The position numbers and the translations under genes were made by a program. From IMG/VR virus record IMGVR_UViG_3300027861_000010: a DNA stretch of 64,000 nt. One strand, 5' to 3'. The number at the start of each line of letters is the position of its first letter. The first letter of the stretch is position 1. This DNA is from a virus. The notes beneath the pieces were generated by a model. It saw nothing but the letters and a program-made list of their open reading frames with translations, had not been told where the DNA came from and made no database searches. Positions 7,737-46,936 of the stretch are shown piece after piece.

Positions 7737-10031
7737 ATGCTTACAGCAGAAGCCCGTGTGGAGTTGTTGTCTGAAGGCAGTGAAGAACGTCGTAACGGAA
7801 GCCTGACAGTCACGAAACGGAATAGCGATGTTGTTCCGTTCGACGTCCACCGGATTGAGAAGGCCATGCTTGCTTGCATGGTAGATGATCTCAGTTATGA
7901 GTTGGACAAAGCAGAGCCAATTGCGAAGAGTGTTGCCAAGCAGGTTCACAACCTGTTGTGTTTTGAGAAGCAGCCAGTCAGTGTTGAAGTCATTCAGAAT
8001 CTGGTTGAAGCCCAGTTGATGGCTTACGGTTACTATGATGTAGCCAAGCAGTACATTCTCTTCCGCGACGAGAAGCGAAGACTTCGCGAGTCAGCGGAAA
8101 TCCCTGATGAAGTTGTCGAAGCCTTCAAGGCCAATGACAAATACTTCTCTAACGAGATCCAGAAGTTTCAGGCTCTCGACAAGTTTGCTCGGTTCGATCA
8201 TGAACGGGGTCGTCGCGAAACGTGGCCAGAAACTTGTGCCCGTGTCATCAAGTACTTCAAGTGGCACTGCGACAATAAAGGCTACGAAATTACTCCGACA
8301 TATTGGGACCTGTTGGAGCGAAGCCTGCTCGATCTCAAAGCGTCACCCTCGATGCGTTGTGTGCAGATGGCAGGTCCGGCACTGGAGCGGTGCCAGGTCG
8401 GTGTCTACAACTGCTCATTCCAGTTTCTACAAAGCACCCGTGATCTTACCGAAGAGCTTTATGTTCTGATGCAGGGAACGGGTGTTGGCTTTTCAGTGGA
8501 GTACGAGTACGCGACTGAGAAGTTTCCTCGAGTCAAGCGACAGAAGAAGGACGCCGAAGTTGCCACTCACGTCATTGAGGATACGACAGAGGGTTGGTGT
8601 GAGGCATATCGTCTCGGGCTCGATACTTGGTGGGGCGGCCACGATATCAAGTTTGACTTCAGTCAAATTCGTGAAGCCGGTGCTCCGCTCAAGATTAAAG
8701 GCGGCAAGGCATCTGGCCCGGGTCCGTTGAAGGACCTTCTGGAATTTGCCCGTACTCGCATCTTGTTAAAACAAGGTAAGGCCCTTTCCAGTCTCGATCT
8801 CCACGACATCAACTGTTATGCCCACCGCATTGTCCGGATGGGCGGCGTTCGCAGAGCTAGTGGCATATCGTTGACCGATCTTCACGATCGAGAAATGCGG
8901 GATTGCAAGCAGGGCGAGTTTTGGACTCACGACGAGCAGCGAAATCAGGCCAACAATTCTGCCGTCTATAACGAGAAGCCTGATCCGTTGGTTTGGATGG
9001 AAGAGTGGTTAGCGTTGGCTCGAAGCGGGTCGGGAGAGCGAGGCATCTTCAACCGTGGTGCTCTGAAGGCTCAGTTTCCTAAGCGGCGAAAGACACGCGG
9101 TCAACTGTTTGGCACCAACCCTTGTGGTGAGATCATTCTGCGGCACAAGCAGTTCTGTAATCTCTCCATTGCTGTGATTCGTCCGACTGACACGTTGGAG
9201 ACTATTACTGAGAAAGTTATCCTTGCTACGATCTGGGGTACGCTTCAGTCCACAATGACTGATTTCCAGTACATCGGTGACGAATGGAAGAAGAACAGCG
9301 AGGAAGAGCGTTTGCTTGGTGTCGACTTACTCGGCTTCCTTGACCACCCGTTGTTTCAGGATGACGACAAAGCTGGTCCGATCCTGGATGAACTTCGCGA
9401 GGTTGTGAACCGAACCAACCAAGAGTGGGCTGACGCGTTGGGTGTTTCAGCTTCCACAGCTACGACCTGCATCAAACCTTCTGGCGACAGCAGTGTGTTC
9501 TTCGGGACCGCGGCTGGCTTCAAAGGGCACCACGGCGAGCACTATGTTCGTCGTACCCGAGCAAATAACACTAATCCGGTAGCTCAGATGCTGCGGGATG
9601 AAGGTGTTCCTTGCTTTACTGACTATGATGGCAGCGGGTTGGTACTTGAGTTTCCGATGAAGGCACCTAAAGGCGGCGTCTTACTGAAAGATCAAACAGC
9701 TCTGAGTCAGCTGGAGAAGTGGAAAACCTTCAAGCTTCATTGGACAGAGCACAATCCGAGCGTCACGATTTACGTGCGACCGGAAGAATGGCTGGACGTC
9801 GGCAAATGGGTTTACGACAATTGGAATATCGTTGGCGGACTCAGCTTTCTGCCGTATGATGGTGGTGTGTATCACTTGGCTCCGTACGAGGCGATTACTA
9901 AGGAAGACTTCGATAAACGCGTTTCGTTGTTTCCTGAAGTGAACTGGGCCAAGCTTGTTCGTTACGAAAAGTCGGACATGACTGATCTACACCAGCAGGT
10001 TGCGTGTACCGGGGGTGCCTGTGAGATCTGA
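7737..10031 (+). CDS. nrdJ: Class II (adenosylcobalamin-dependent) ribonucleotide reductase with N-terminal ATP-cone
   Basis: ATP-cone VTKRNSDVVPFDVHRIEKAM; RRETWPET; SPSMR; YNCSF; TNPCGEI; TCIKPSG; HNPSVT; C-terminal ACTGGACEI. Confidence 0.9.
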   Translation: MLTAEARVELLSEGSEERRNGSLTVTKRNSDVVPFDVHRIEKAMLACMVDDLSYELDKAEPIAKSVAKQVHNLLCFEKQPVSVEVIQNLVEAQLMAYGYYDVAKQYILFRDEKRRLRESAEIPDEVVEAFKANDKYFSNEIQKFQALDKFARFDHERGRRETWPETCARVIKYFKWHCDNKGYEITPTYWDLLERSLLDLKASPSMRCVQMAGPALERCQVGVYNCSFQFLQSTRDLTEELYVLMQGTGVGFSVEYEYATEKFPRVKRQKKDAEVATHVIEDTTEGWCEAYRLGLDTWWGGHDIKFDFSQIREAGAPLKIKGGKASGPGPLKDLLEFARTRILLKQGKALSSLDLHDINCYAHRIVRMGGVRRASGISLTDLHDREMRDCKQGEFWTHDEQRNQANNSAVYNEKPDPLVWMEEWLALARSGSGERGIFNRGALKAQFPKRRKTRGQLFGTNPCGEIILRHKQFCNLSIAVIRPTDTLETITEKVILATIWGTLQSTMTDFQYIGDEWKKNSEEERLLGVDLLGFLDHPLFQDDDKAGPILDELREVVNRTNQEWADALGVSASTATTCIKPSGDSSVFFGTAAGFKGHHGEHYVRRTRANNTNPVAQMLRDEGVPCFTDYDGSGLVLEFPMKAPKGGVLLKDQTALSQLEKWKTFKLHWTEHNPSVTIYVRPEEWLDVGKWVYDNWNIVGGLSFLPYDGGVYHLAPYEAITKEDFDKRVSLFPEVNWAKLVRYEKSDMTDLHQQVACTGGACEI

Positions 10032-10057
10032 CATTGCAAGGGAATGCAGGTCGATAG

Positions 10058-10086
10058 AGGTCACGCTCCGGCGTGGCCTTTTTTTT
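10058..10086 (+). terminator. Intrinsic terminator after nrdJ
   Basis: AGGTCACGC-TCCG-GCGTGGCCT followed by a T run. Confidence 0.85.
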
Positions 10087-13854: not shown

Positions 13855-16800
13855 ATGGAACCGCTCACGCCAAATCTGCTTGAGCCTTCGACTCCATCTT
13901 TGCTGTCCTCGGCTCCTATCTCTCCACCAAGTCCTCTGCCTGCTCAGCAGCCAGAGGATGATTTTCGTGAATTCGGTGATACCGACAAGACGCGGTCGAG
14001 CATTTACCAACGAGTGCTCCAGGCGGCTCAGTCAATTGAGCCAATTACCAATGAGCGTCACACTCTGCGATTGACCGGGGTCGACTATCAAGACCCCGAT
14101 CGCGTCAGTAAGCGAGATCAGAAAGCCGCTATCCTGGGCGGGTTAAGTCGAGGCCGGAGGCTCCGAGGAACTTGGGAGCTGATGGATAACGCCACAGGTC
14201 AGGTGCTGGATCAGAAGAAGTCCGTATTGATGACCGTGCCTCACATGACGGAACGAGGTACCTTTATCAACAAAGGGACTGAGTACACGTTGAAGAACCA
14301 GCAACGATTGCTTCCAGGAGTGTATACGCGAGTCCGTGACAACGGTGAGATTGAGTCCCACGCCAATATCATGCCCGGCAAGGGAGTTTCGCACCGTTAT
14401 TTCCTTGACCCAGAGAAGGGTGTATTCAAGATCCGATTGGGTCAAGGCACCGTCGGACTAATGCCACTGCTCAAGGCAATGGGAGCTAAACCGGGGCAGC
14501 TTAAAGAAGCCTGGGGCCGGGACCTTTTTGCGTCAAACTACAACGCAGACGACGCCACAGAGTATAAGAAACTCAAGCAGAAGTTTCTTACAAAGAAGGA
14601 ACTCGAAGGCGAAGAGAACGAACAACGGGAAGCGTTGGTCAACAAGTTTGCCAGCATGGAGATGGATCCGCAGGTCACCAGCCGGACGCTGGGCAAGCCT
14701 CATCAAGGGCTGACACTGGACGCTGTCCTGGATATTACGAAGAAGTTGGTTGCGGTCTCTAAGAATGAGGCCGAGCCAGATGATCGAGACTCACTGACGT
14801 TCCAACAGTTTGTCGGGCCGGAAGATTTGTTCGCTGAGCGAATCAAGCGGGACAAGGGTGGCCTGCGTCGAAATCTGTTGTGGAAGATGTCTGGTAAAGG
14901 CAATCTAAAAGGGATGCCGTCCTCGGCTCTCAATAAACAACTGATGGCCGCGTTGATGACTTCAGGTCTGGGTCAGGCGATCGAAGAGATCAATCCTGCT
15001 GAACTTTATGACAAGTCGACGGCAGTTAGTCGTTTAGGGGAGGGCGGCATTCCTTCAACAGATGCGATCCCGAAAGAAGCTCGGAGTGTCCAACCAAGCA
15101 TGCTGGGCTACATCGACCCAGTGCGAACGCCAGAGTCCGGCAAGGTGGGTGTAGACACTTACTTGGCTCGAGGTGCTCGTAAGGGAAAGGACGGAAAACT
15201 CTACTCACAGTTCCGCGACGTAAAGACAGGGAAACTGCTTTACAAGTCGCCGCAGGATGTGGCGGATATGACCATTGCCTTCCCAGGCAGTATGGATCAA
15301 CGCAGCAAACGAGTTGCAGCCATGCGTAACGGGAAGATGACGTACGTGCCGAAGGATGAAGTTGATCTGGTGTTGCCTTCAATGGAGGAGGCATTTAATC
15401 CGTTGTCCAACATCATTCCTATGAAGAGTCAGGTGAAAGGGCAACGGTTGGTGATGGCGTCTCGAATGACGACGCAAGCCTTGCCGATCGTGGACGCCGA
15501 AGCTCCGTTGGTACAGTCAGCAATTCCGGACACAGATGGCAACCAAAGTTACGAAGAACTGTACTCAAACAATATGGGAGCGTTGCGGGCTCCCCAGGGT
15601 GGTGTTGTCAAAAGTGTTGATGACGACGGGATCACAGTTCGATACGAAGACGGCACCGAGGAAACTCACGATCTGTATCAGAACTTCCCGTTCAACCGAA
15701 AGACGTTCATTCACCAAACTGCAAACGTAAAGCCCGGTGATCAGTTTAAGCCAGATCAGTTGCTGGCCTATTCCAATTACACAGACAAAGGTGGAGCAAC
15801 AGCTCTCGGTAGGAACGCCAGAACCGCTTACATTGCCTGGCAGGGAAAGAACTTTGAAGACGCTGTGGTTGTCTCAGAAAGCTTTGCTCGGAAAATGTCT
15901 TCTGAGCACATGTATCAACACGACTTGGAGGTCGATGATAAGACGAAGGTTGGAAAGAAGCAGTTCATCCAACAGTTCCCAGGTAAGTTCGACAAAGCGA
16001 CACTCGCTAAGCTCGACGAGAACGGAGTCATCAAACCTGGAACTGTCGTGAACTATGGTGATCCTTTGATTCTCGGGGTTACACAGCGAGAAGCGGCCCA
16101 CAACAAGGTTCACAAGAAAGGTCAATCGGGGTTTAACGATGCAACAGTCACTTGGAATCATCACGACGCTGGCACCATTACCGATGTGGTTATGGGCAAA
16201 AAAGGGCCGACTGTCGTTGTTAAAGCATCCTCCCCAACCCAGACCGGCGACAAGCTATCAGGCCGTTACGGTGACAAAGGAGTCATTGCTGACATCATCC
16301 CAGACGGTGAAATGCCGCATAACGGTGATGGTCAGCCCTTTGAAGTGTTACTCAATCCGCTCGGAGTAATCACTCGAACCAATCCGGCTCAGATGGCTGA
16401 GTTACTTCTTGGCAAGATTGCGGCCAAACGCGGCAAGCCGATCAAAGTGCAGGACTTTGACTCCCAGAAGGACATGGCTGCCTGGGTCATGGAGGAACTG
16501 GGCCGGGAAGGCCTATCCGATCTCGAAGATGTCCTCGATCCGTCCAAGGATCAGAAGGTCAAAGGAATCGCTACGGGCAACCGGTTCTTTATGAAGCTGC
16601 ACCACACAGCTGAGTCCAAGGGACAAAGCCGCGGCGGCGGGTCTTACACGATGGAGGACACACCGGCTAAGGGAGGGTCAGAGGGTTCCAAGCGTGTCGG
16701 CATGTTGGATACCAACGCACTGTTGTCTCACGGAGCTACGGCGACTCTGCAAGACGTCAGCTCTGTACGTGGACAGAAGAATGACGAGTACTGGATGCAG

Positions 16801-18309
16801 TTCATGGCCGGGTACAACCCGAAGGCTGCGAAAGTTCCGTTGGTGTACCGGAAGTTTGTCGATCAGTTGAGGGCCGCAGGTGTCAATGTGACCAAACAGG
16901 GTACCCAGACCAACATCATGGCCCTGACGGACAAAGATATCGACGAAATGGCTGGAGATCGTAAGCTGACCTCCGCCGAAGGTGTTGATTGGGGTGAGTC
17001 TCTTAAGGAGATTCCAGGTGGTTTGTTCGATAAGGCCAAGACTGGAGGTCATGGCGGCAACAAATGGTCGTACATGCAGCTGCATGAGCCCTTGCCTAAC
17101 CCTGTAATGGAGGAACCGCTTCGGCGACTCCTCGGACTCACGAAAAAGGACTTCAATGCCGTCATTTCAGGCGAAAAGCCGTTGGGATCGCACGGAGCAG
17201 GTCCTGGAGCCCTGAAAAAGGCTCTGGAGTCGATGAATGTTGATGCAGAGATCAAGAAAACCCGAAATATCATCCAAGCTGGGCGAGCATCGGAGCGGGA
17301 TGCCGCAGTAAAGAAGCTGGGCTACCTAAAATCAGCCAAAAAGCTCGGATTGAAGCCTGAAGACTATGTTTTGAGTAAAGTTCCTGTCCTGCCGCCGATG
17401 TTTCGGCCTGTCAGCATGATGAGCAACGATATGCCGCTCATCAATGACGCGAACTTTCTTTACAAAGAGCTTTTCGAGGCTAATTCCAACCTGAAAGCAA
17501 TACAGAAGGAGCTCGGCAACGACGCGTCGGGGCAAGAGCGACTCGCAACGTACAATGCCTTCAAGGCAGTGACAGGTTTGGGCGATCCGATCCATCAGAA
17601 GACCCGAGACAAGAACGTCAAAGGTATTTTGAAGACAGTGTTCGGCTCGAGCCCCAAGTTTGGCACGCTGCAACGTAAATTGATCTCCACAACGGTCGAT
17701 AATGTCGGTCGAGCGGTGATCACACCAAATCCTGATCTCGATATGGATTCTGTTGGCCTGCCAGAGGACAAAGCGTTCAAGGCGTACGACAAGTTCATCA
17801 CCAGGCGACTGGTGCGACAAGGAATGTCACTTCGAGCAGCTCGTAACGAAGTTGCAAATAAATCGAAGCTGGCTCGGAAACTTCTGTTGGAGGAAATGGA
17901 TGAACGACCGGTCTATATCAGTCGGGCTCCAGTTCTTCACAAGTTCGGTATCATGGCTATGAAGCCTCGATTAACCAAAGGTAGCACCTTGCAGGTGAGC
18001 CCTTTGATTGTGAAAGGTTTCAACGCTGACTTCGACGGCGATGCCATGAATTACAACGTCCCAAGTACGGAGAAGGCTCGTAAGGAAGCGATCGAGCGAC
18101 TTTTGCCTTCCCGTAACTTGTTCAGTCTGTCAGACTTCAAGTCTGTGATGCATGCTCCAGCTAACGAGTATGTTGGTGGTTTGTTTCATGCAACGAAGTC
18201 AAAAAGTGACCGTCCCAAGAAGATTTTCCGAACAGCCGCGGACGCGAGGAAAGCGTACGAGCGAGGTGATATCTCTATCGACGATCGCGTTCAAATCTTA
18301 GAATCGTAA
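13855..18309 (+). CDS. Phage multisubunit DNA-directed RNA polymerase: beta fused to N-terminal half of beta-prime
   Basis: beta motifs PHMTERGTFINKG, RTPESGKVG, NFEDAV, GDKLSGRYGDKGVI, LLNPLG, MKLHH; beta-prime motifs VPVLPPMFRP, GRAVITP, SRAPVLH, catalytic NADFDGD at 18022-18042. Confidence 0.95.
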   Translation: MEPLTPNLLEPSTPSLLSSAPISPPSPLPAQQPEDDFREFGDTDKTRSSIYQRVLQAAQSIEPITNERHTLRLTGVDYQDPDRVSKRDQKAAILGGLSRGRRLRGTWELMDNATGQVLDQKKSVLMTVPHMTERGTFINKGTEYTLKNQQRLLPGVYTRVRDNGEIESHANIMPGKGVSHRYFLDPEKGVFKIRLGQGTVGLMPLLKAMGAKPGQLKEAWGRDLFASNYNADDATEYKKLKQKFLTKKELEGEENEQREALVNKFASMEMDPQVTSRTLGKPHQGLTLDAVLDITKKLVAVSKNEAEPDDRDSLTFQQFVGPEDLFAERIKRDKGGLRRNLLWKMSGKGNLKGMPSSALNKQLMAALMTSGLGQAIEEINPAELYDKSTAVSRLGEGGIPSTDAIPKEARSVQPSMLGYIDPVRTPESGKVGVDTYLARGARKGKDGKLYSQFRDVKTGKLLYKSPQDVADMTIAFPGSMDQRSKRVAAMRNGKMTYVPKDEVDLVLPSMEEAFNPLSNIIPMKSQVKGQRLVMASRMTTQALPIVDAEAPLVQSAIPDTDGNQSYEELYSNNMGALRAPQGGVVKSVDDDGITVRYEDGTEETHDLYQNFPFNRKTFIHQTANVKPGDQFKPDQLLAYSNYTDKGGATALGRNARTAYIAWQGKNFEDAVVVSESFARKMSSEHMYQHDLEVDDKTKVGKKQFIQQFPGKFDKATLAKLDENGVIKPGTVVNYGDPLILGVTQREAAHNKVHKKGQSGFNDATVTWNHHDAGTITDVVMGKKGPTVVVKASSPTQTGDKLSGRYGDKGVIADIIPDGEMPHNGDGQPFEVLLNPLGVITRTNPAQMAELLLGKIAAKRGKPIKVQDFDSQKDMAAWVMEELGREGLSDLEDVLDPSKDQKVKGIATGNRFFMKLHHTAESKGQSRGGGSYTMEDTPAKGGSEGSKRVGMLDTNALLSHGATATLQDVSSVRGQKNDEYWMQFMAGYNPKAAKVPLVYRKFVDQLRAAGVNVTKQGTQTNIMALTDKDIDEMAGDRKLTSAEGVDWGESLKEIPGGLFDKAKTGGHGGNKWSYMQLHEPLPNPVMEEPLRRLLGLTKKDFNAVISGEKPLGSHGAGPGALKKALESMNVDAEIKKTRNIIQAGRASERDAAVKKLGYLKSAKKLGLKPEDYVLSKVPVLPPMFRPVSMMSNDMPLINDANFLYKELFEANSNLKAIQKELGNDASGQERLATYNAFKAVTGLGDPIHQKTRDKNVKGILKTVFGSSPKFGTLQRKLISTTVDNVGRAVITPNPDLDMDSVGLPEDKAFKAYDKFITRRLVRQGMSLRAARNEVANKSKLARKLLLEEMDERPVYISRAPVLHKFGIMAMKPRLTKGSTLQVSPLIVKGFNADFDGDAMNYNVPSTEKARKEAIERLLPSRNLFSLSDFKSVMHAPANEYVGGLFHATKSKSDRPKKIFRTAADARKAYERGDISIDDRVQILES

Positions 18310-18339
18310 CTGCTTGACGCAGATAAGGAGATCAAACAA

Positions 18340-19029
18340 ATGGGCATCAACCCAGAATTGCTGAAGCTGGCTCGCCATAATGTCGGTCAGCAAAAAGTTG
18401 CTTTCGTTCCCGCTGGTGATCCTACAATGGGTGGGGATCCTGCTGCTGGGGGTGCTCCAATGGACCCTGCCGCAGCTGGCGGTGCTCCGCCGATGGATCC
18501 AATGGCCGCAGGCGGAGCTCCACCGATGGACCCGGCTGCTGGCGGCGGTGATCCGCTTGCCGGACTTCAACCGATGATCCAACAAGCTGTTCAGCAGGCT
18601 ATGGCCGCTGGCGGCGGCGGTGGCGGCGGTGCTCCCGGCGAGGCAGCCATCAAGCCAAAGATCGACATCAACGTCGAAGTCATGCAGATGAAGAAACTGT
18701 TGGCCAAGCTGTGCGATGCGATGGGTGTTCAGATTCCAGCCGCTGAAATGGTTGCGACACCTGAAGACCTTAATCAAATGGCAGCAGGCGGTCCCGGGGC
18801 CGCGGCAGCCACTCCGGACGGCGGTGGCGGCATGCCTGGTGGAGATCCGGCAGCTGGCGGCGGAGCCATTCCGCCGATCGAACCGATGAAGGCTGCGGAA
18901 GACTGGGAAGCAGGCGTAGCGTTCACTCCGCCTGCGGCTTACGACTTCCAGAATTCACACTCGACCACAAAGAATACCGCTAACATGGCTGCGGCTATGC
19001 TCCTGCGGAATCGCACAAAGGTCTCTTAA
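18340..19029 (+). CDS. Gly/Pro/Met low-complexity protein with DPAA(A)GGAPPM repeats
   Basis: About four degenerate ~10-aa repeats at ~18430-18560; K-x-A sites KLAR, KVAF, KAAE. Confidence 0.65.
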   Translation: MGINPELLKLARHNVGQQKVAFVPAGDPTMGGDPAAGGAPMDPAAAGGAPPMDPMAAGGAPPMDPAAGGGDPLAGLQPMIQQAVQQAMAAGGGGGGGAPGEAAIKPKIDINVEVMQMKKLLAKLCDAMGVQIPAAEMVATPEDLNQMAAGGPGAAAATPDGGGGMPGGDPAAGGGAIPPIEPMKAAEDWEAGVAFTPPAAYDFQNSHSTTKNTANMAAAMLLRNRTKVS

Positions 19030-19256
19030 TGTTCATTGTTGAGATAGTTGAAGCCATCGGGAAGCCTCCATTACGTGTGGAGGCTTCCCAAGTTGTGGTC
19101 CGTATGCCTGACGGAACGCCCGTTAGTTTGGCCGCACTTTATGGAAGCTCCGAAAGTGTCCTGGTATCGCACTGTGAGGACGAGACTTTTAATGACAACC
19201 TCCGAAAACTAGGACTGAACGATACCGTAATCTCTGAAACCCTGAAGGTGAAATAA
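19029..19256 (+). CDS. Small hypothetical protein
   Basis: Stop/start overlap (TAATG) with upstream gene. Confidence 0.6.
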   Translation: MFIVEIVEAIGKPPLRVEASQVVVRMPDGTPVSLAALYGSSESVLVSHCEDETFNDNLRKLGLNDTVISETLKVK

Positions 19257-19257
19257 C

Positions 19258-19986
19258 ATGGCCGGACCACTCCGATCAGCTGACAAGGCGTACTACGCTT
19301 CAAAGCAACCCCTATTTCTTCGCGGCACTCGCGAAGGTCGAAAGAACCCTGCACCCAACCCGTCGTACAAGCAGAAAGCGAACGACGTGACCGCGTCGTC
19401 GAACAAGTATTACGCCGCAATGGAGCCAGTGGCTACTTCGGTTCAGCCTGCCGCAGGTCAGAAACTGCAGACGACGTTCGCTCCAGAAAAGGTCGCTACG
19501 CTTCAGGCAAAGGCACAGGTCTTGCCGGACGTAGTTGCTGCCTTTCAAGGTGGAGCCACAACCGTACGTATCGAAGGTGAGTCCGCAGACATCAACAAGT
19601 CACGAGCCGCGGTTGAAATGGCTGTTGGACGTAAGACGCTGACACGGGAGCAGTCTGACCGTGTTGTTTTTGTCCCGGTACAAAAGCCCGCCACTTCTAA
19701 CGAGGTGGAGGTAGTAAGTACCGAAGAAGCCCCAGCCGTTCCTGTTGAAGCGGAAGCCATTTTGAATCCACCTGCGGAAGTCACGAAAACGCCAAAGAAG
19801 AAGACGACACGTAAGAAGACGACCAGGAAGAAGAAGACCAACACTGCTGCGGATGTTCCTGCAAGTGTTCCTGCAGAAGTGCAGGAACCGGCAGCGGAAG
19901 ATGATTCAGTGACTGAAGCTGACATTGCAAGTGCATTCGGAGTCGCGGACGACTCGGATGATTTCGATGCTGACAGTGACGATTAA
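19258..19986 (+). CDS. Hypothetical protein with Lys/Thr-rich basic patch and acidic tail
   Basis: KKKTTRKKTTRKKK followed by a D/E-rich C-terminus. Confidence 0.65.
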   Translation: MAGPLRSADKAYYASKQPLFLRGTREGRKNPAPNPSYKQKANDVTASSNKYYAAMEPVATSVQPAAGQKLQTTFAPEKVATLQAKAQVLPDVVAAFQGGATTVRIEGESADINKSRAAVEMAVGRKTLTREQSDRVVFVPVQKPATSNEVEVVSTEEAPAVPVEAEAILNPPAEVTKTPKKKTTRKKTTRKKKTNTAADVPASVPAEVQEPAAEDDSVTEADIASAFGVADDSDDFDADSDD

Positions 19987-19998
19987 GTGAGTTTGTGA

Positions 19999-22900
19999 AT
20001 GCTCAACACTACAGTTGGACAACTGCTGGTCAACGAGGCCCTTCCTGACGAGCTTCGCGATTACAATCGCGTGCTCGACAATAAGGGTATGCATGCACTG
20101 CTCCAACAAGTGGCTCGAGAGCATCCAGACAAGTACCGTGAAGTTTCATTCAAGTTGAATCAGGTTGGTCAACGTTCCGCCCAAGACCAGGGCGGAATGT
20201 CGTTTAGTGCTCGACACCTGAAGCGTTCGCCGTATGCGAATGAAACTCGATCACGCATTCAGGCTCAACTGGGTAAGGTACTTGACGACGATTCCTTAAC
20301 TGACGAGCAGCGAGCGGCCAAAGTTGTTCGTATTGTTGGCAAAGAGATGGAACCTCAACAGAAGGCAATTCTGGAGGAGGCCATCAAAGACAAAAATCCC
20401 CTAGCGATGCAGGTGCTATCAGGTAGCCGCGGGAAGCCAATGAACTTGGCCAGCCTGTTGGGTGCTGACATGTTGTACTCAGATCATCGCGACGAGGTAA
20501 TTCCGATTCCGGTACTTCGCAGTTACAGCGAAGGGCTGACACCTGAAGAATACTGGGCCGGAACGTACGGAGCTCGTCGCGGCATTATCGCAACGAAGTT
20601 CGCCACTCAGGAAGCTGGTTTCTTATCTAAGCAGCTCAACCAGGCTGGACACCGGCTGGTGGTGATGGATGAAGAGGGCGAGGATGACGATCGCCGCGGT
20701 ATGGTTGTCGATACGGACGACATGGATAACGAAGGGTCATTACTGGCCCGCGACATGGGACCGTACAAGCGAAATACTCCGCTGACACCGAAGATTCTCA
20801 AGCACTTAAAGCGTCTCGGTAAAAACCGGATTTTAATCCGATCACCGCTGGTTGGCGGCTCGCCGGAAGGTGGAGTCTATGCTCGGGATGTCGGTATTCG
20901 AGAGACTGGTAAGTTGCCTGGCCGCGGCGAACAGGTCGGCTTGCAAGCAGCACAGGCATTAAGTGAACCGATCAGCCAAGGCCAATTGTCGGCTAAACAC
21001 TCGGGCGGCGTTGCTGGCCAAGAGAAAGCTGTCGGCGGTTTCCAGGCAATCAACCAGCTGATCCAGGTACCCAAGAAGATGCAAGGCGGAGCCGCTCACT
21101 CAGAAAAGGACGGCATCGTCCAACGAGTGGAGAAAGCTCCGGCTGGCGGACACTACGTCACGATCAACGATAAGCAACATTACGTTGGAGAAGGTTTTGA
21201 CGTCAAAGTCAAAAAGGGCGACGAAATCGAAGCGGGCGATCTGCTGAGTAACGGCATTCCTAATCCGGCCCTGATCGTGAAGTACAAGGGCGTAGGCGAA
21301 GGTCGTCGTTACTTTGTTAATGAGTTCCGCAAGGCGATGGCCGGAGGCGGAATGCAAGGGCATCGTCGTAACATCGAGCTGCTGGCTCGCGGACTCATCA
21401 ATCACGTCAAGATGACCGACGAGACTGACGAGCATGCTCCGGACGATATTATTCCTTACTCAACATTGGAGCACACCTATAAGCCGAGAGGAGACTCTCA
21501 GTTGTTGGCTCCAAAGAAAGCCGTCGGACAATACTTAGAGCGTCCGGTATTGCACTACACCATCGGCACCAAGATCCGCCCTTCGATGTTGAAAGACTTC
21601 GAGGAGTTCGGCATCACCGACTTGCCAGTCCATAAAGAACCACCTCCGTTCCAGCCGCACATGGTTCGAGGGATGTATACACTTCAACATGACCCAGACT
21701 GGATGACCCAGATGTACGGGTCTGGACTGAAGAAGAGTCTGTTGAATTCCACTGCTCGTGGTGCAACCAGCGATGCTCGAGGAACCAGTTTTGTTTCCAG
21801 TCTGGCTGAAGGCTCTGATTTCGGTGAGGTTGCAGATCGTGCTGTGATTCAGCCGAAGCCTTCGTACGAGTTGCCTAAGATTGAGCCACCTGCTCCTGAG
21901 GAAGAAAAGCTTCCGGCTCCTGCCGCTCCGCCTACACCGTCGTTCTTCGGTGGTCGGTTCAAGACTGGTATGCATAAACAGGCTGAGGAACCCAAAGTTC
22001 CGACAGCACCAAAAACGCCAGCAACGCAATCGCTTGCTGCACCATTGGCACCGACACCTGCTCCGACTGGGGCAGGTAATATGTCGTCGAATATCATGCC
22101 TTCGTCAGGACCTACAGCTCAGGATTTCATGCCAGCACCGGGTCAGTTGGGTTCACAAGAGAATCCCAACGGCATTATGCCTCCGGATCAGTTGCAGCAG
22201 TATGCTCAGAATGCTCAACAGCAGAATGACCGCGGGATGCGGATGGTGGGTGTAGACCCGATGTCTGATCCGTTCAGAACGCAGACAACTGCGGCAACGC
22301 CTCCGCCGTCAACTCCAGCTCAAGCCCGAGCCGACCAGGTACAGCAACAACGTAGCTACGGTAGTGGCAACACTCAAACGGATATGCGGACTTTGTTCGC
22401 TCAGGCACCTTCGAGAACCTTAGCTGGTAACTCCCTGGCACGGAAGATGCGTCGAGGGGATGCTCGTACAATGGGGATCCAGGCAGCTCGACAACGTGCT
22501 CAACAGATACAGAACGAGCAAGCTGCTCGCCGGAATCTGTACCAACAGGCCCACCCACAGCGAGCTTATGACCCTATACCGGGGCCGTCAGTCGCGGGAC
22601 CATTACCTGCAGAGCAGTCACAAAGTCCCGTACCGGCAACTGGCGAGATGGGTTATGGTGACGTGGCTGGCACTTTACTTGCCGGACAACATGCCTGGAC
22701 GCAAGGCGGTAGAGTTTGGAATGCGGCGGCTAAAGGTGAAATGCTTACGCACGGTTCACAGCTAGGCAAGTCACTCAATCCTGGAGCACAGAAAGGCGTT
22801 CAGACGGTAAATCAGTTGGCCCGTACCGCAGCACACAAGACCCCAGGACTCGGACGCTTTGTTGCTGCCACAAGTGATGATGCCGCCCGGGCTGCTGGAG

Positions 22901-23886
22901 CAAGCAGCAAAGGACTCTCAAAGGCCCTTGGTCCTGCTGCTTTTGTGTTGGAAGGTGGGCTTATCGGGAAAGACATTTACGATAAGACACAAGAAGGGCA
23001 ATCGTTTGGTCGGGCCTGGAAAGAGCAGGCGGATGAGCACGGAGCTAATACTCGAGGCCTGTTTACTGACTGGGATGGCGGTGCTCACGAGATATATCAG
23101 AAACCTATTGATGTGGCGATGCATGTGCTGAGCCCGGTAGCTACTGTGCAGGAAGGAACACAATTGGCCGCCGAAGTCGGCGGCGGTCTCGGAGATATGG
23201 CCACAGGTGCGTGGAACTTCGCGTCGGATGCTGAGGGACGTAACCGGGCAGCAGCAAAAGCCGAAACCGAACAAATGATGGCTGATCGCCAGGAGGCTCT
23301 ATCAGGAGAGCAGGACCAGATCCGGTCAACGCTGGAAAATAATAAAACAATCTCGCCGATGCAGAAAGAAGAGTTACGCCAACGCTCTGCCGAGTTAGAC
23401 TTACGGAAGCAGGAAGCCCAGTTGAAAGCTGACGCGGCCACGGACGAAACAGAAGGCTGGCAGCTCGGTAAGCAACACACATTTGGTACTGGTGGACATT
23501 ACTTTCGTGACGCAATGGCCGGGACAGGGAACCGGCTTTCAGCGAAAATCGAAAAATTACAGGCTAACCAGGATAGTCTGACACCAGAACAACAGTTCGA
23601 TTTGAAGAATATGATTCGCAGGCGTGACGAGATGAAGAGGCTGGGAGACTTTTACAGTCGCGAAGTTGGCTATTTTGGTGAAGGAGATTTCACTAAAATT
23701 ATGCGAATCCGTGTGCGAAACATAAAAGTCCAGTCAGTGGAACTCGCCCGGCGACTACGCGAGCCTGCTGTAAAAGGGAACCCTCAGCTTACAATGGAGT
23801 TGGAAGCTGAGATGCGACATCAACAAACCCGCCTTGCAAACATGAAAAGCTGGGCTAGACAGGCCAAGAATCAGAAGGTCAAGTAG
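19999..23886 (+). CDS. RNA polymerase beta-prime C-terminal subunit with ~630-aa appended domain
   Basis: TTVGQLL, SGSRG, bridge helix GLTPEEYWAGTYGARRG..T..GFL, trigger loop GLQAAQALSEP..SAKHSGG; similarity ends near aa 610; K660-Q-A precedes an unrelated extension. Confidence 0.9.
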   Translation: MLNTTVGQLLVNEALPDELRDYNRVLDNKGMHALLQQVAREHPDKYREVSFKLNQVGQRSAQDQGGMSFSARHLKRSPYANETRSRIQAQLGKVLDDDSLTDEQRAAKVVRIVGKEMEPQQKAILEEAIKDKNPLAMQVLSGSRGKPMNLASLLGADMLYSDHRDEVIPIPVLRSYSEGLTPEEYWAGTYGARRGIIATKFATQEAGFLSKQLNQAGHRLVVMDEEGEDDDRRGMVVDTDDMDNEGSLLARDMGPYKRNTPLTPKILKHLKRLGKNRILIRSPLVGGSPEGGVYARDVGIRETGKLPGRGEQVGLQAAQALSEPISQGQLSAKHSGGVAGQEKAVGGFQAINQLIQVPKKMQGGAAHSEKDGIVQRVEKAPAGGHYVTINDKQHYVGEGFDVKVKKGDEIEAGDLLSNGIPNPALIVKYKGVGEGRRYFVNEFRKAMAGGGMQGHRRNIELLARGLINHVKMTDETDEHAPDDIIPYSTLEHTYKPRGDSQLLAPKKAVGQYLERPVLHYTIGTKIRPSMLKDFEEFGITDLPVHKEPPPFQPHMVRGMYTLQHDPDWMTQMYGSGLKKSLLNSTARGATSDARGTSFVSSLAEGSDFGEVADRAVIQPKPSYELPKIEPPAPEEEKLPAPAAPPTPSFFGGRFKTGMHKQAEEPKVPTAPKTPATQSLAAPLAPTPAPTGAGNMSSNIMPSSGPTAQDFMPAPGQLGSQENPNGIMPPDQLQQYAQNAQQQNDRGMRMVGVDPMSDPFRTQTTAATPPPSTPAQARADQVQQQRSYGSGNTQTDMRTLFAQAPSRTLAGNSLARKMRRGDARTMGIQAARQRAQQIQNEQAARRNLYQQAHPQRAYDPIPGPSVAGPLPAEQSQSPVPATGEMGYGDVAGTLLAGQHAWTQGGRVWNAAAKGEMLTHGSQLGKSLNPGAQKGVQTVNQLARTAAHKTPGLGRFVAATSDDAARAAGASSKGLSKALGPAAFVLEGGLIGKDIYDKTQEGQSFGRAWKEQADEHGANTRGLFTDWDGGAHEIYQKPIDVAMHVLSPVATVQEGTQLAAEVGGGLGDMATGAWNFASDAEGRNRAAAKAETEQMMADRQEALSGEQDQIRSTLENNKTISPMQKEELRQRSAELDLRKQEAQLKADAATDETEGWQLGKQHTFGTGGHYFRDAMAGTGNRLSAKIEKLQANQDSLTPEQQFDLKNMIRRRDEMKRLGDFYSREVGYFGEGDFTKIMRIRVRNIKVQSVELARRLREPAVKGNPQLTMELEAEMRHQQTRLANMKSWARQAKNQKVK
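20821..20834. repeat. Palindrome copy AAAAACCGGATTTT (1 mismatch)
   Basis: Inside the beta-prime C gene; flanked by T and A. Confidence 0.6.
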
Positions 23887-23971: not shown

Positions 23972-24229
23972 ATGACAGCTATGCCAACTCTAGGAGGTCT
24001 TGACGAGAAGTACGCGGGAGCGTACCTCATTCGACCGACCGCCAAACCGAAGAAAAAGAAGAAGAAGAAGTCCAAGCGTCCTACATTAAAGGGCCTTGAT
24101 AAGGCGGCTGCTGATGCGGCGGTGCAAGCGATTTCTGCTCAACAGATTGCAATGCGGCAGCGTTTACAGTCTGGCGACTTGGGTGGCGGTTGGAATCCAT
24201 TCGATCAACTGACTGACAACAATTCATAG
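23972..24229 (+). CDS. Small basic protein with poly-Lys tract
   Basis: KPKKKKKKKSKR. Confidence 0.55.
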   Translation: MTAMPTLGGLDEKYAGAYLIRPTAKPKKKKKKKSKRPTLKGLDKAAADAAVQAISAQQIAMRQRLQSGDLGGGWNPFDQLTDNNS

Positions 24230-24246: not shown

Positions 24247-26772
24247 ATGGAAGGAACCATGCATACTTCAATTATTACAAAATCTGCCAACCTTGGCGGC
24301 AGTGGTGGCGAGACGGAATTTGAACAAGCATTTTCCAGCCTCGCATACGCTTACCTGCGGGACAAAGCTCCTCGATTGCTCGACCACATGGTCGGCTTTC
24401 AGCTTGTCGACCGCAACGAAGACAACACCAAAGCCATGGGGATCTTCGGATTCCAGATCGATAAGCAGTGGCTTTATGCTCCCGTCTTCTTCCTGAACGG
24501 TGACCTCAAGGGTCATGAGTTGTTGTACATGAAGAACAACGACTCCTTCGTTCCGATGAAGGAGAACTGGATCAACTACATCATGAGCCGCAAGCCTCAT
24601 GTATTGGGCGAGTCCTCTTCAGATCAACTGCGGGATCTTGGAGGCATCTACCCTGATATCCGGTCGCTTTCGATACCGCCTTCGGTTGGCGGCGGTAAGC
24701 GAGCATCGGATCAGGAGTGGCTGAAAGACGCTATGCCGATGCTGGCTGCGTTCAAAGTCAAAGCTGCCAGCTCGCTTTTCCCTGGAGCTGGAAACCGCAA
24801 ACTTAACCAGGCAGCTGTCGTCGAAGCTCCGCTTACTGCGGCATTGACCAAGCACGCTCAAAATCTGGATTTTAACCAGATCATGCCGACCAGCTTGGAA
24901 TTGATGAAGCAGGCACACGACATCGCTGAGATGTATCCGACCATTAAGCAGGCGATGCAGAAGTTCTACGGCGTCGATTGTTTCAGCCGATGGGGCCGAG
25001 AGTATCGCGATAACACGGCCAAAGAGGCTGGCAACATCATGCCAGAGAAGCGGGCTGCCGCTCGGCCATACATGCCTGGCAATTTGCTGATTCCTACGGA
25101 GCGACCGGCTGGTCCCGTCGACCACGAAAAATCCGGCAAGCTCCGGATGTATGTTTACGAAGAAGTCATTGTCAGCAAGGCTCCGGAGTTGGACGAGGAC
25201 GAGCGTGAGCGTCTACAGAAAGACACCGTCCTGATTAAGGATCACCGCGAAGGGGAAGAAGTCAGCAAGGCCTACAATACTCAGGTCGAAGCCAAACTGA
25301 CGAATCCCTCAGAGACCGCCCTCTACCGTGTGTTGGTTAAGCCGGGCGAGTTCAAAAAGATGCTGATCGCCATGAACGGCTCCAGCAATCGAGGTCGTGA
25401 AGCCATGGCGACAGTTGTCCGCCTGGAAGATAACGGCGACGGATCGAACAAGGCCTGGTTGAATACGCACCCGACCAATGTTTTCGCTGATCAGATCAGT
25501 GAACGTGATGAGTGGGAAGAGTGGTTCAACGGATTGGGCGATTCAAGTTCGCTGACTGAAGGTGCTGAGTACATCGCAGTCGCAGAGAACGGTTCAACCT
25601 CGGTGCCATTTACCGTGCAGTCCAGTTACGGCGATGATCGTTATCGTGTTGATTTCCGTACCGACATTAACTGGAACGAGACTCGACCAGCCACGATGCC
25701 TCGTGTTGCTGCTAACCGTTTCGATCAGTACGGTGACGACCAGGACCGGGCTCCGTCGCCGTACGGGGCAATGCTTTACATCAACAAGGAAGGCAAGAAG
25801 GGCACCAAGATTCGAGCGATCGGTGGCGAACTTCGCATTCCAGAGGACTTCAAGTTCCTTAAACTCAAAAGCCCACAGAAGTCGAAACCTGGCGAGCTCA
25901 TGTGTTGTAGCGATTACGAGACTCGTAGCGACATGCCGCCTATCAATCTCGGAAAGATCGACGACATCCAGTTGCTCTTCCACGAGAAGACAGCTCGATT
26001 GAAGGTTTTCAACAACGGCACTGACGTGTATATCTCGTCGCCGTTGGGTGAGCAGTGTCTATCTAAGAAGTCTGCTCTACTGAACCTGGTCGGTACGCAT
26101 GGCTTTCGTGAAAAGGTTGCCCGGGAGATTCTGACTTACGCCGAACAGAAAGGTAACGCGGTTTACCGTGCGTCTTATGCTCCCGGCTATGGGCCTGAAA
26201 AACAAGCTGCTCCGAACAGAAGTATGCTGGCTGGCGGGCCAAGTGCTCCGATGTACGATGACTTTGCCAACGAGCAGAGTGTGGAAGAATACGGTCCTCG
26301 AACGGCTGTACCAACTCAGTACGGTAGCGAGCAGGCTTACCGTGTCGACAGCATGACAGCAGATCAGACCGATCCGGCAGTATGGGACAATTGGCAGAAC
26401 TATTCTGCTGAGGATTTCCAAAGCAGCATGCAGGTTGCTCAGCAGGCCGGTGCCGAAGGTCAGAAAGAGGTTTTCGACACTTCGATGATCTCTGGAATGC
26501 TCAAGTCCGTTCGACAGGATTCGCTTGTTGAGCGACATCTTGGTAGTCTGGTCGAAGCGTTGGACGCTCTTGGGCGTTTGATCATGAACTTCTACTGGCA
26601 CCAGGAGGAGTTTGAAGATCGTTACGGTAAGAGCGATTTACCTGAACTGGAAGACAGCTTGCGGAATGCATTCGAGTCCCTGGGTGACATCACTCTGTTC
26701 CTCAAAGAGAAAACTATCGAATCGCCGTTCGACGAAGGCGATGTCGATCTCGAAGAAACTGCAAGGAATTAA
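24247..26772 (+). CDS. Large putative virion head-associated protein with many K-x-A sites
   Basis: KSAN, KRAS, KHAQ, KRAA, KTAR, KQAA; globular-looking N-domain (PVFFLNGDLKG) and helical C-domain. Confidence 0.6.
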   Translation: MEGTMHTSIITKSANLGGSGGETEFEQAFSSLAYAYLRDKAPRLLDHMVGFQLVDRNEDNTKAMGIFGFQIDKQWLYAPVFFLNGDLKGHELLYMKNNDSFVPMKENWINYIMSRKPHVLGESSSDQLRDLGGIYPDIRSLSIPPSVGGGKRASDQEWLKDAMPMLAAFKVKAASSLFPGAGNRKLNQAAVVEAPLTAALTKHAQNLDFNQIMPTSLELMKQAHDIAEMYPTIKQAMQKFYGVDCFSRWGREYRDNTAKEAGNIMPEKRAAARPYMPGNLLIPTERPAGPVDHEKSGKLRMYVYEEVIVSKAPELDEDERERLQKDTVLIKDHREGEEVSKAYNTQVEAKLTNPSETALYRVLVKPGEFKKMLIAMNGSSNRGREAMATVVRLEDNGDGSNKAWLNTHPTNVFADQISERDEWEEWFNGLGDSSSLTEGAEYIAVAENGSTSVPFTVQSSYGDDRYRVDFRTDINWNETRPATMPRVAANRFDQYGDDQDRAPSPYGAMLYINKEGKKGTKIRAIGGELRIPEDFKFLKLKSPQKSKPGELMCCSDYETRSDMPPINLGKIDDIQLLFHEKTARLKVFNNGTDVYISSPLGEQCLSKKSALLNLVGTHGFREKVAREILTYAEQKGNAVYRASYAPGYGPEKQAAPNRSMLAGGPSAPMYDDFANEQSVEEYGPRTAVPTQYGSEQAYRVDSMTADQTDPAVWDNWQNYSAEDFQSSMQVAQQAGAEGQKEVFDTSMISGMLKSVRQDSLVERHLGSLVEALDALGRLIMNFYWHQEEFEDRYGKSDLPELEDSLRNAFESLGDITLFLKEKTIESPFDEGDVDLEETARN
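24860..24873. repeat. Palindrome copy AAAATCTGGATTTT (1 mismatch)
   Basis: Reverse complement of the 36347 copy; 18 of 19 bp shared including flanks. Confidence 0.7.
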
Positions 26773-35021: not shown

Positions 35022-35969
35022 ATGGCTAACTCAACAGTCATGACTCAAGAAGAATCCAAACTTCTGAGTCAAGCGATCTTTGAGAAGCTGTCCTCGCGAG
35101 ATCCAAGTCTCGAGAAGCAGGCCGTTGACGCTGTCAACGACTTCACTCGTACGAAGATGCGTGAAGACGGATTCTACCGTCGGATCATGCCGCCGATTCC
35201 AATCGCCAATGACGATCTCGATCGTCAAGTCGATACGGACAAGCCGGTCAAGATCGTGGACAAAGAACCGGACAGCCCAGCTGCTGTGTCGATTCCGTTC
35301 GCCACGTTGCCGACGAATCTTTACATCAAGGGCGACCGTTACCGGGTGCACTTCGACCGAATCGTGACTCCCAAGTTCACGAAGGACGTCGACGAGTTGC
35401 GTACCTGGTACATGGATATTCGCCAGGTCCTTTCGGACAACGCGATCAAGGACATGCTGGCAGAGGAAGATGGCAAGTTCATCTCCGCCGTCAACACCGC
35501 GTTGGTCGGTCCTGGTCTGGTTGTTCCCACTTCGGGAACGGTTCAGTATCAGCAAATCGCTGGTGGCATCACCCGCGATACCCTGTGGGATTCGCTCAAG
35601 ATCATGCCCAACACGCCGTCGAACCTTGAAGTTCACTGCGTGCTGCTCAACAACATCACCATCAAGGAAGTGGCTAAGTTCAGCCGCAACGAGATGGGTG
35701 GTGACCTCTCCGAAGAGATCATGCGTAACGGCTGGACTCTGAGCGAGGCGATGGGCGTCAAGTGGGTGATTACGATCAAGAAGGGTCTCGTGCCAACCAA
35801 CACGATGTACCACTTCGCTGATCCCAAGTTCATAGGCAAGAGCTATATGCTCGAAGATACAACGATGTACATCCGTCGAGAGGCGTATTTCATCGAGTTC
35901 TTCGCCTACGAATCCCTGGGTGGAACACTGGGTCATACCTCTGGTTTGGCTCGCGTCGACTTCACCTAA
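35022..35969 (+). CDS. Major capsid protein
   Basis: AAGGAGG RBS, strongest codon bias in the window, position after protease and scaffold; leader ends EKQA (K32-A34). Confidence 0.8.
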   Translation: MANSTVMTQEESKLLSQAIFEKLSSRDPSLEKQAVDAVNDFTRTKMREDGFYRRIMPPIPIANDDLDRQVDTDKPVKIVDKEPDSPAAVSIPFATLPTNLYIKGDRYRVHFDRIVTPKFTKDVDELRTWYMDIRQVLSDNAIKDMLAEEDGKFISAVNTALVGPGLVVPTSGTVQYQQIAGGITRDTLWDSLKIMPNTPSNLEVHCVLLNNITIKEVAKFSRNEMGGDLSEEIMRNGWTLSEAMGVKWVITIKKGLVPTNTMYHFADPKFIGKSYMLEDTTMYIRREAYFIEFFAYESLGGTLGHTSGLARVDFT

Positions 35970-46932: not shown

Positions 46933-46936
46933 CACT

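Follow-up and report, generated by a model that had tools for sequence, protein, structure and literature searches.

Polymerase genes and their surroundings

The stretch of 64,000 nucleotides analyzed here (the window) belongs to an uncultured phage of ~210 kb in which a bacterial-type RNA polymerase (RNAP) is encoded by two genes (Table 1). An earlier note on this DNA had spoken of two subunits, but these are not simply beta and beta'; the first is beta fused in frame to the N-terminal part of beta' through the catalytic motif (beta::beta'-N), and the second, a separate gene downstream, is the C-terminal part of beta' (beta'-C) extended by a tail of ~675 aa. Pfam matches on the 1484-aa chain comprised Rpb2_6 (PF00562, E 4.7e-49, aa 581-933), i.e., the beta catalytic domain (Rpb2 domain 6), as well as Rpb2_3, Rpb1_1, and Rpb1_2 (E 6e-24), while the motif position together with the Rpb1_2 match places the beta' double-psi beta-barrel with its Mg-binding NADFDGD in this chain. 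Domains 3 and 6 of beta are thus shared with bacterial RNAP (Pfam), and the NADFDGD motif, the bridge helix, the trigger loop, and the fold of the C-terminal half are in common with beta' of E. coli, Salmonella, and Thermus. The trigger-loop histidine (H334 of beta'-C) is invariant in alignment A1, and judged by its catalytic motifs the RNAP looks intact. The AlphaFold2 model of beta'-C reached a pLDDT of 85 (81-95 over the former second zinc site and 86-95 over its remnant at 20839..20895), and Foldseek searches with this model returned Thermus and E. coli beta' at the top (TM 0.73). The tail had no RNAP homology, no Pfam match past aa 478 of beta'-C, and no paralogue within the window; therefore, the polymerase accounts for about 2100 of the 2779 residues. 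Total lengths of beta'-C homologues vary between 643 and 2577 aa.

Table 1 Positions of the RNAP genes, their sites, and neighbouring features in the window
Feature	Position	Strand	Details
Strong intrinsic-terminator-like hairpin after ribonucleotide reductase gene	10056..10081	+	11-pair stem then T run
beta::beta'-N fusion gene	13855..18309	+	1484 aa, 0 Cys; Pfam on single chain
Scar of deleted beta' N-terminal zinc-binding domain	17020..17082	+	GLFDKAKTGGHGGNKWSYMQL; alignment with Salmonella RpoC
Catalytic NADFDGD motif	18022..18042	+	aa 1390-1396 of beta::beta'-N; aligns to bacterial NADFDGD
Pair of small conserved ORFs separating the RNAP genes	18340..19986	+	18340-19029 (229 aa, 1 Cys); 19258-19986 (242 aa, 0 Cys)
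beta'-C gene including long tail	19999-23886	+	1295 aa, 0 Cys
beta' C-terminal half (bridge helix, trigger loop, jaw)	19999..21858	+	aa 1-620; Pfam Rpb1_5 E 1e-19; 0 Cys
G227, position of E. coli beta' zinc ligand C814	20677..20679	+	alignment
Second zinc site remnant	20839..20895	+	RSPLVGGSPEGGVYARDVG; G286, Y294, D297 for C888, C895, C898
beta'-C C-terminal tail	21859..23886	+	~675 aa, 0 Cys; Pro/Gln/Ala-rich linker then helical part
Arash Gp218 'structural protein' homologue	24247..26772	+	tblastn matches to Arash and D181
Arash major capsid protein Gp226 homologue	35022..35969	+	29% identity over 310 aa, E 9e-34

The same two-gene organization, with beta fused to beta'-N and beta'-C encoded apart, occurs in Salmonella phage Arash (Gp206 + Gp216; PMC10585845) and in the Vibrio phages D181, D148, and D69, whose RNAPs align over nearly the full length (96% of the query for Gp206) at 25-31% identity; Arash (31%) is the closest cultured relative. 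Arash beta'-C is 606 aa long and has no long tail, in contrast to the 1295 aa found here, and Arash has clear sigma factors, whereas Pfam scans of the window ORFs revealed no clear sigma factor. No alpha or omega family was among the matches of the Pfam scan of these ORFs either. In three complete relatives (G001, G002, and Arash), one RNAP set each was found with PF04998, PF00623, and PF00562, models that missed part of the known phiKZ/AR9 sets. The two chains are the phage's own RNAP and probably its only one. The phiKZ virion set (gp178, gp149, gp180, gp80) and the non-virion RNAPs of AR9 and phiKZ are likewise related to beta/beta', but in these phages both subunits are split, two sets are present per genome, and the sequences are far more diverged from bacterial RNAP, being barely detected by phmmer. 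A split RNAP of the phiKZ/AR9 type was ruled out by the unsplit beta fused to beta'-N, and the relatives show a single set.

The two small ORFs between the RNAP genes had no Pfam or PHROG match. ORFs of similar size occupy this position in L005-L011, and the first one has a homologue (46% identity) in L008, where more ORFs separate the RNAP genes. Upstream, the hairpin after the ribonucleotide reductase gene has the longest stem among the plus-strand matches between 9500 and 27000 (others ≤ 8 pairs) and forms the upstream limit of the block with the RNAP genes. These head a co-oriented series that reaches homologues of Arash structural proteins and of its major capsid protein, the Gp218 homologue being located two ORFs downstream of beta'-C, past an 85-aa ORF (23972-24229). 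Both the synteny with Arash structural and capsid genes and the terminator upstream locate the RNAP genes in the virion/late gene block; a head-gene neighbourhood is shared by the Arash and Vibrio phage RNAPs, and the virion RNAP subunits of phiKZ are annotated as head proteins.

Loss of the zinc sites and of cysteine

Two zinc ions are coordinated in bacterial beta', one by C70/72/85/88 and the other by C814/888/895/898. The latter four-Cys site is regarded as a scaffold for folding and assembly, and Markov et al. (1999, Genes Dev) reportedly found it necessary for assembly. The loss of both sites, which the earlier note had claimed, was confirmed by alignment with Salmonella RpoC (E. coli numbering). 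From GLF to GHIEL there are 53 residues in the bacterium vs. 21 here, a 32-residue deletion by which C70, C72, C85, and C88 are all gone, and the scar sits exactly where the note had placed it. The second site likewise reads RSPLVG..GVYARD as described, with RSPLVG starting at 20839 and GVYARD ending at 20889. At the position of G227, the clade has G, D, A, E, Y, and others, with Cys in 0/250 beta'-C representatives, in which the consensus of the whole site is x-G-Y-D; D297 is nearly invariant, and both replacement residues, Y294 and D297, are conserved in the clade alignments. Together, alignment and structure prediction show the second site as replaced by a conserved metal-free segment, GG..GGVYARD, which in the model retains the bacterial fold.

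The N-terminal zinc-binding domain is described as common to all multisubunit RNAPs in the statement of Lane and Darst (2010) quoted in PMC7618050, and it is also missing from the AR9 non-virion RNAP (PMC7618050). In the alignments, its deletion extends to Arash, D181, L012 (an IMG/VR phage at 40% identity), L008, and L006, and a short motif of the scar fits 111/120 cluster representatives of beta-beta'N. On whether homologues keep Cys and zinc ligands, which the earlier note regarded as counting against its reading, they divide. The first domain is missing from Arash, D181, and L012, but their second site still has its four ligands, at positions where the window RNAP has G, G, Y, and D; these ligands are the only Cys of beta'-C in Arash and D181 as well as in the 520 aa of L012 present at the locus. 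In the window's own clade, 250 beta'-C representatives (48-100% identity) contain 15 Cys in 152,891 aligned residues (0.010%), none of them at a zinc position, and 120 beta-beta'N representatives contain 24 in 168,769 (0.014%). Most Cys of intein-bearing members, counted by interval, fall within the inserts, and the residue following the listed intein junctions is Ser in all but one. The aligned sequences show that the N-terminal zinc-binding domain was lost already in the common ancestor with Arash and the Vibrio phages, and that the second site was lost later, in the clade of the window. They also support the view that a Cys-free, zinc-site-free RNAP has been selected for throughout the clade and is not an accident of one genome. 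No paper describing such a phage RNAP was found in the literature searched.

The claim that 2779 residues hold no Cys is correct as well (0 in 1484 aa and 0 in 1295 aa), compared with 22 Cys in beta and beta' of Salmonella. With the other ORFs of the window as background (176 Cys in 17,982 residues, 0.98%), the probability of this outcome is 1.3e-12. Cysteine loss is not genome-wide, as Cys makes up 1.58% of all residues in G001, a complete relative, and 2.1% of the ribonucleotide reductase of these phages. Cys-free ORFs of at least 200 aa nevertheless exceed expectation, both in G001 (9 vs. 1.5) and in the window (7 vs. 1.1). Several other Cys-free proteins of the window are Ala/Gly-rich, aromatic-poor, and helical- or disordered-looking, a composition by which such neighbours would be Cys-poor anyway.

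The residues of beta that contact rifampicin are mostly changed (in E. coli numbering, F514A, D516E, H526K, R529A, and I572D, which are five of the main contacts), and the RNAP is for this reason probably insensitive to the drug.

Proposed virion packaging and competing explanations

The earlier note regarded the RNAP as a virion-packaged, injected enzyme. In favour of this stand the Arash homologues in the virion proteome, the synteny with the structural block, the precedent for Cys suppression, and the altered rifampicin contacts, while the Cys kept by the virion RNAP of phiKZ, the composition of the other Cys-free proteins, and the lack of a clear sigma factor among the window ORFs scanned tell against it; from these comparisons, packaging in the virion is plausible. 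In the Arash virion proteome, Gp206 had the highest spectrum count (3516) and Gp216 the fifth-highest (1210), although Arash is only 25-31% identical and the list comprises 116 proteins, ribonucleotide reductases included, and its authors allow for carry-over of abundant proteins (PMC10585845). For ejection proteins of Schitoviridae, Cys suppression has been published as a signature and explained by their passage across periplasm and envelope (PMC11445570). The virion RNAPs N4 gp50 and DEV gp71 are giant proteins encoded among virion/ejection genes, in which suppression is family-wide (PMC11445570); the N4 enzyme is indeed Cys-free, as the earlier note had stated (0 in 3500 aa). The window RNAP differs from the N4 enzyme in being multisubunit, the latter being single-subunit, T7-like, and without homology to beta/beta', and packaging and ejection are experimentally proven for N4 while they are inferred here. 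T7 provides a similar case, as gp15 and gp16 have 0 Cys in 2065 aa and the portal, capsid, and tail proteins 0.5-1%. Family-wide suppression of this kind is present in the window's clade and, nearly total, in the Arash and Vibrio phage RNAPs, but it is not universal: 16 Cys occur among the 2614 aa of the phiKZ virion RNAP (0.61%), whose beta'-C, gp80, keeps a C..C..CxxC pattern and so probably the second zinc site. The pattern is also kept by phiKZ gp74 and by AR9 gp153, which has exactly four Cys. Packaging therefore neither requires nor predicts total Cys loss.

We consider it fairly probable that the phage packs its own two-chain RNAP, stripped of all Cys, into the capsid, and that this enzyme enters the host with the DNA. 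The RNAP would be made late, alongside head and tail proteins, would be packed into the capsid and go into the host with the DNA, and would start phage transcription there without the host polymerase. Free thiols and zinc-thiolate clusters would be counter-selected because, as we propose, the protein is stored outside the cell and must pass, or refold after, the tail and envelope; the envelope-passage rationale is the one published for N4-like ejection proteins. That rationale is weakened by the fact that Arash is a myovirus, the contractile tail tube of which could spare ejected proteins the periplasm. For the same reason, periplasmic exposure being less obvious, one may ask whether a packed RNAP lost its Cys so as to stay stable during long storage in oxic surroundings, water or soil, where it would escape thiol oxidation, zinc loss, or disulfide cross-links to dense internal proteins and may enter folded or partly folded. 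Such a cause draws on the same packaging evidence, and proteins of the tail/baseplate block, outside the head, keep many Cys (10 in the ORF at 46922-47926 and 11 in that at 47936-48829). However, N4 and T7 capsid-shell and portal proteins face the same outside conditions, and several of them keep some Cys, and the phiKZ RNAP is stored in the head with its Cys intact. Differing from envelope passage in the selective cause only, and inseparable from it by sequence alone, storage stability appears to us an improbable driver.

Slightly better, yet still unlikely, are the prospects of an ordinary intracellular, unpackaged enzyme, in which the loss of Cys and zinc would be an adaptation to the cell or habitat (e.g., to oxidative or thiol-reactive stress, host defence against thiols or zinc sites, or zinc sparing) and not to virion transport. 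If the RNAP is the sole set, as the complete relatives suggest, it must also serve for transcription inside the cell; phiKZ packages a multisubunit RNAP with its Cys kept, and the Arash proteome list is broad enough for carry-over. Stress should, however, also hit the other enzymes, which are Cys-normal or high, zinc sparing covers eight ligands and not every Cys in ~2100 structured residues, and the RNAP genes are found in the structural block and not among early/replication genes. A neutral or compositional accident or a gene-calling artefact can be set aside as highly improbable: even though the beta'-C tail and several neighbouring ORFs are of low complexity and Cys-poor by composition, the 2104 structured RNAP residues alone give a probability of 1e-9 for zero Cys, the ORFs cover RNAP domains end to end (Pfam), Y294 and D297 are conserved replacements, and Cys amounts to 0.01% over ~320,000 aligned residues from 370 cluster representatives with identities as low as 48%.

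A wider proposal, to which we give less credit than to packaging and entry of this RNAP as such and which we offer tentatively, is that a cellular-type multisubunit RNAP was rebuilt metal-site-free and thiol-free for storage in the capsid and delivery through the tail. If true, the proteins ejected into the host would be the Cys-free ones of these phages, namely the two RNAP chains, the products of the small ORFs lying between and ahead of their genes, and the proteins of 415, 433, and 1618 aa, and the 'universal' zinc sites of beta' would be dispensable for folding, assembly, and catalysis. Family-wide Cys suppression may then predict ejected proteins from sequence, far beyond the N4-like phages.

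Loss of cysteine and of both zinc sites in the window RNAP

Both beta' zinc sites are regarded as near-universal structural features of multisubunit RNAPs, and the second is thought necessary for assembly. The beta' parts of the window enzyme were aligned with Salmonella RpoC and the homologues of the Salmonella phage Arash (the closest cultured relative) and the Vibrio phage D181, and the alignment bore out the earlier note's claim that both sites had been lost: between GLF and the GHIEL equivalent, 32 residues of the bacterial protein are missing, C70, C72, C85, and C88 (E. coli numbering) among them, and in the second site G227, G286, Y294, and D297 take the places of C814, C888, C895, and C898. 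The peptides quoted in that note lie exactly at the positions it gave, and its count of no Cys in 2779 residues was reproduced (0 in 1484 plus 0 in 1295). The sole correction concerns its description of two subunits, as there are indeed two Cys-free chains, but they do not correspond one-to-one to beta and beta': the 1484-aa chain joins a whole beta in frame to the N-terminal half of beta', reaching past the catalytic NADFDGD at aa 1390, and the other chain is beta'-C. Because the other ORFs of the window run at 0.98% Cys, the probability of finding none in 2779 residues is 1.3e-12 (1e-9 for the ~2100 polymerase residues alone).

The NADFDGD motif, the beta motif GDK..GR.G.KG and the trigger-loop His are intact. 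When beta'-C aa 1-620 was modelled with AlphaFold2 on an alignment of 49 sequences, the mean pLDDT was 85 (81-95 in ten-residue blocks spanning aa 221-300), and the top Foldseek matches of the model were the Thermus and E. coli beta' (TM 0.73, ~625 columns); judging from this confidence and these bacterial matches, the former zinc module seems to hold its fold in the absence of metal. For the rifampicin pocket, the conserved motifs NP and GxGG served as anchors of the alignment. Among the E. coli beta positions of rifampicin contact and resistance, F514, D516, H526, R529, and I572 are changed to A, E, K, A, and D, and Q513, S531, and L533 are unchanged. Given the changed drug-contact residues, rifampicin insensitivity is predicted and seems likely.

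Features of the window discussed in the text
Feature	Coordinates	Strand	Remarks
Ribonucleotide reductase gene	7737-10031		16 Cys; adjoins the Cys-free block
Strong terminator	10056-10081	+	Ends the preceding nucleotide-metabolism genes
Fused RNAP chain (beta::beta'-N)	13855-18309	+	1484 aa; Rpb2 domains 3 and 6, then Rpb1 domains 1 and 2 (Pfam)
N-terminal stretch of fused chain	13855-14040		~60 residues, Pro/Ser/Leu-rich
First ORF between RNAP genes	18340-19029	+	Gly/Pro/Ala/Met-rich, with MDPxAAGGAPP repeats
Second ORF between RNAP genes	19258-19986	+	Lys/Thr-rich stretch and acidic C-terminus DDSDDFDADSDD
beta'-C	19999-23886	+	1295 aa; Rpb1 domain 5 within first 480 residues (Pfam)
Tail of beta'-C	21859-23886		Pro/Gln/Ala-rich, then helical
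Structural-block ORF	31036-32532		13 Cys
Structural-block ORF	46922-47926		10 Cys
Structural-block ORF	47936-48829		11 Cys
1618-aa protein	57703-62559		0 Cys, 0 Trp, 0.2% His

Every long ORF of the window lies on the + strand. The tail of beta'-C, which begins at ~aa 620, had no family match in Pfam and varies greatly in length among close relatives (total protein 643 to 2577 aa), the polymerase part staying 50-88% identical in relatives whose tails differ; the idea that it arose by duplication of a virion protein encoded nearby was rejected, as the window holds no paralogue. The N-terminal stretch of the fused chain aligns in close relatives and lies outside the tblastn alignment to Arash, which begins at window residue 63; it could be a targeting signal or a processed leader. 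Neither of the two small ORFs separating the RNAP genes matched a family in Pfam or PHROGs, and in close relatives their positions are taken by ORFs of similar size; they could encode accessory proteins of the RNAP or proteins packaged with it. Pfam and PHROGs on ~50 window ORFs gave no sigma factor. Sigma factors are clear in Arash and in the complete relative G002, and the search of window-like genomes yielded a weak region-4 match; the candidate in G001, another complete relative, has 441 aa and 5 Cys, so a Cys-free sigma factor is not claimed.

Distribution across the clade and order of the losses

Relatives were collected with beta'-C aa 1-620 as query, using a word-indexed search together with an exhaustive profile search. 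The 250 distinct cluster representatives of beta'-C (48-100% identity) hold 15 Cys in 152,891 aligned residues; all four zinc-ligand positions are free of Cys and have the consensus x-G-Y-D, and the segment RSPLVGGSPxGGVYARDVG is nearly invariant among them. For the fused chain the count is 24 Cys in 168,769 aligned residues (120 representatives, 59-100% identity), and 111 of these representatives match the short motif marking the first-domain deletion. The gene order of the window and Cys-free RNAP chains recur at six IMG/VR loci with flanking sequence, which represent five distinct relatives (two of the loci come from near-identical contigs).

The Cys-rich members of the clade carry intein or homing-endonuclease domains (Pfam), and when insert intervals were counted, the Cys of insert-bearing members fell mostly within the inserts. 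In nearly all junctions inspected, the intein opens with Cys, ends in ..SN and is followed by an extein Ser, which would leave the polymerase free of Cys after splicing. The RNAP genes of the clade are an intein hotspot (homologues of 19999-21858 and 13855-18309; examples are the proteins P0060, P0068, P0092, P0135, P0309, and P0334), with at least five recurrent sites in beta'-C (after ~aa 186, 201, 209, 321, and 330 in window numbering) and up to three inteins in some proteins; the window genes themselves have none.

The first zinc domain shows the identical deletion in Arash (31% identity), in D181 and in the IMG/VR phage L012 (40%), all of which retain the second site. The beta'-C chains of Arash and D181 contain exactly four Cys, all of them second-site ligands, and the 520 aa of beta'-C present at the L012 locus contain the same four and no further Cys. 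The fused chain has a single Cys in ~1500 residues in Arash and in L012 and two in D181, where a homing endonuclease splits it. In the relative L008 (56% identity) the second site is already gone. As relatives without the first domain keep the second site, Cys suppression and first-domain loss are old in the lineage, and the second-site ligands were the last thiols lost, in the common ancestor of the clade to which the window belongs. Enzymes with and without the second site are divided at between 40% and 48% identity.

The RNAP of Arash and the Vibrio phage is the closest known, with the same architecture and first deletion, and differs by keeping the second site. The C..C..CxxC pattern in beta'-C was present in all multisubunit phage RNAPs examined outside this lineage, namely phiKZ gp74 (non-virion), phiKZ gp80 (virion), and AR9 gp153 (non-virion). 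The phiKZ subunits were taken from record annotation (the non-virion tally is partial, without gp55), as phmmer, jackhmmer, and a DFDGD regular expression did not detect them because they are too diverged. AR9 gp153 (L015 / L086) has exactly four Cys (C300, C356, C363, and C366) in the second-site pattern, so the reduction of Cys to zinc ligands also occurs outside the Arash lineage and in a non-virion enzyme. The first zinc domain has been reported as lost in the AR9 non-virion RNAP and retained in that of phiKZ (PMC7618050). The literature searched yielded neither an earlier case of second-site loss nor an account of a multisubunit RNAP lacking Cys or zinc sites.

Gene-specific cysteine suppression and proposed virion packaging

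Genome-wide questions were addressed with the complete relatives G001 (204.8 kb, terminal repeats, CheckV 100%) and G002. A generally low Cys content was rejected as the cause, given 1.58% Cys overall in G001 and the content of the other window ORFs. Cys-free ORFs of at least 200 aa are in excess in both (9 observed vs. 1.5 expected in G001, 7 vs. 1.1 in the window), and Cys-rich genes adjoin the Cys-free block, which indicates that suppression is gene-specific and does not extend to all virion genes. The Cys-free neighbours of the RNAP genes were left without identity by PHROGs and Pfam on ~50 window ORFs, where nearly the only ORFs named were ribonucleotide reductase, methyltransferase, sulfotransferase, and glycosyltransferase. 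The 1618-aa protein, which had no match in either database, is Ala/Met/Gln/Arg/Glu-rich with a Met/Gln/Pro/Gly-rich N-terminus and appears largely helical; its G001 counterpart (1174 aa) is likewise Cys-free, and the protein may serve as a tape measure or as an internal/ejection protein.

That the RNAP is packaged in the virion and delivered, as the earlier note proposed, seems to us moderately probable on indirect evidence. In the Arash virion proteome, the fused-chain homologue Gp206 ranks top by spectra (3516) and the beta'-C homologue Gp216 is in the top five (1210), in a list of 116 proteins for which the authors allow possible carry-over of abundant enzymes (PMC10585845). The window RNAP genes are syntenic with the Arash structural block; besides the strong terminator upstream, the + strand sites resembling terminators up to position 27000 have stems of at most 8 pairs. 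For the ejected proteins of N4-like phages, Cys suppression has been published as a signature and attributed to crossing the disulfide-forming periplasm (PMC11445570). The N4 virion RNAP, closest in working principle and unrelated in fold, is Cys-free as had been claimed (0 in 3500 aa), with 1.0-1.4% Cys in most N4 replication enzymes checked and 0.75% in the N4 SSB. The ejected T7 proteins gp15 and gp16 contain no Cys in 2065 aa, and the T7 portal, capsid, tail, and fibre 0.5-1%. Only one RNAP set was detected in the complete relatives, with search models that a control showed to miss diverged sets. Against the packaged reading, the proven phiKZ virion RNAP holds 16 Cys in 2614 aa, Arash is a myovirus, and several further Cys-free window ORFs are Ala/Gly-rich and aromatic-poor, a composition that would make them Cys-poor anyway.

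The uncultured phages of this clade, which is large, abundant, and diverse, have a bacterial-looking RNAP without either zinc site and without any thiol, and the clade's living relatives retain an intermediate in which the first site is gone and the second accounts for the sole Cys of beta'-C. Together they are a natural experiment on the purpose of the zinc sites, with GG..GGVYARD as a short conserved replacement motif open to testing and the window enzyme as a candidate Cys-free polymerase for in-vitro use. If packaging is true, two published ideas would widen: virion-delivered transcription would reach a near-bacterial RNAP, beyond the single-subunit N4 and the diverged phiKZ enzymes, and Cys avoidance by ejected proteins would cover a new enzyme class as well as myoviruses.
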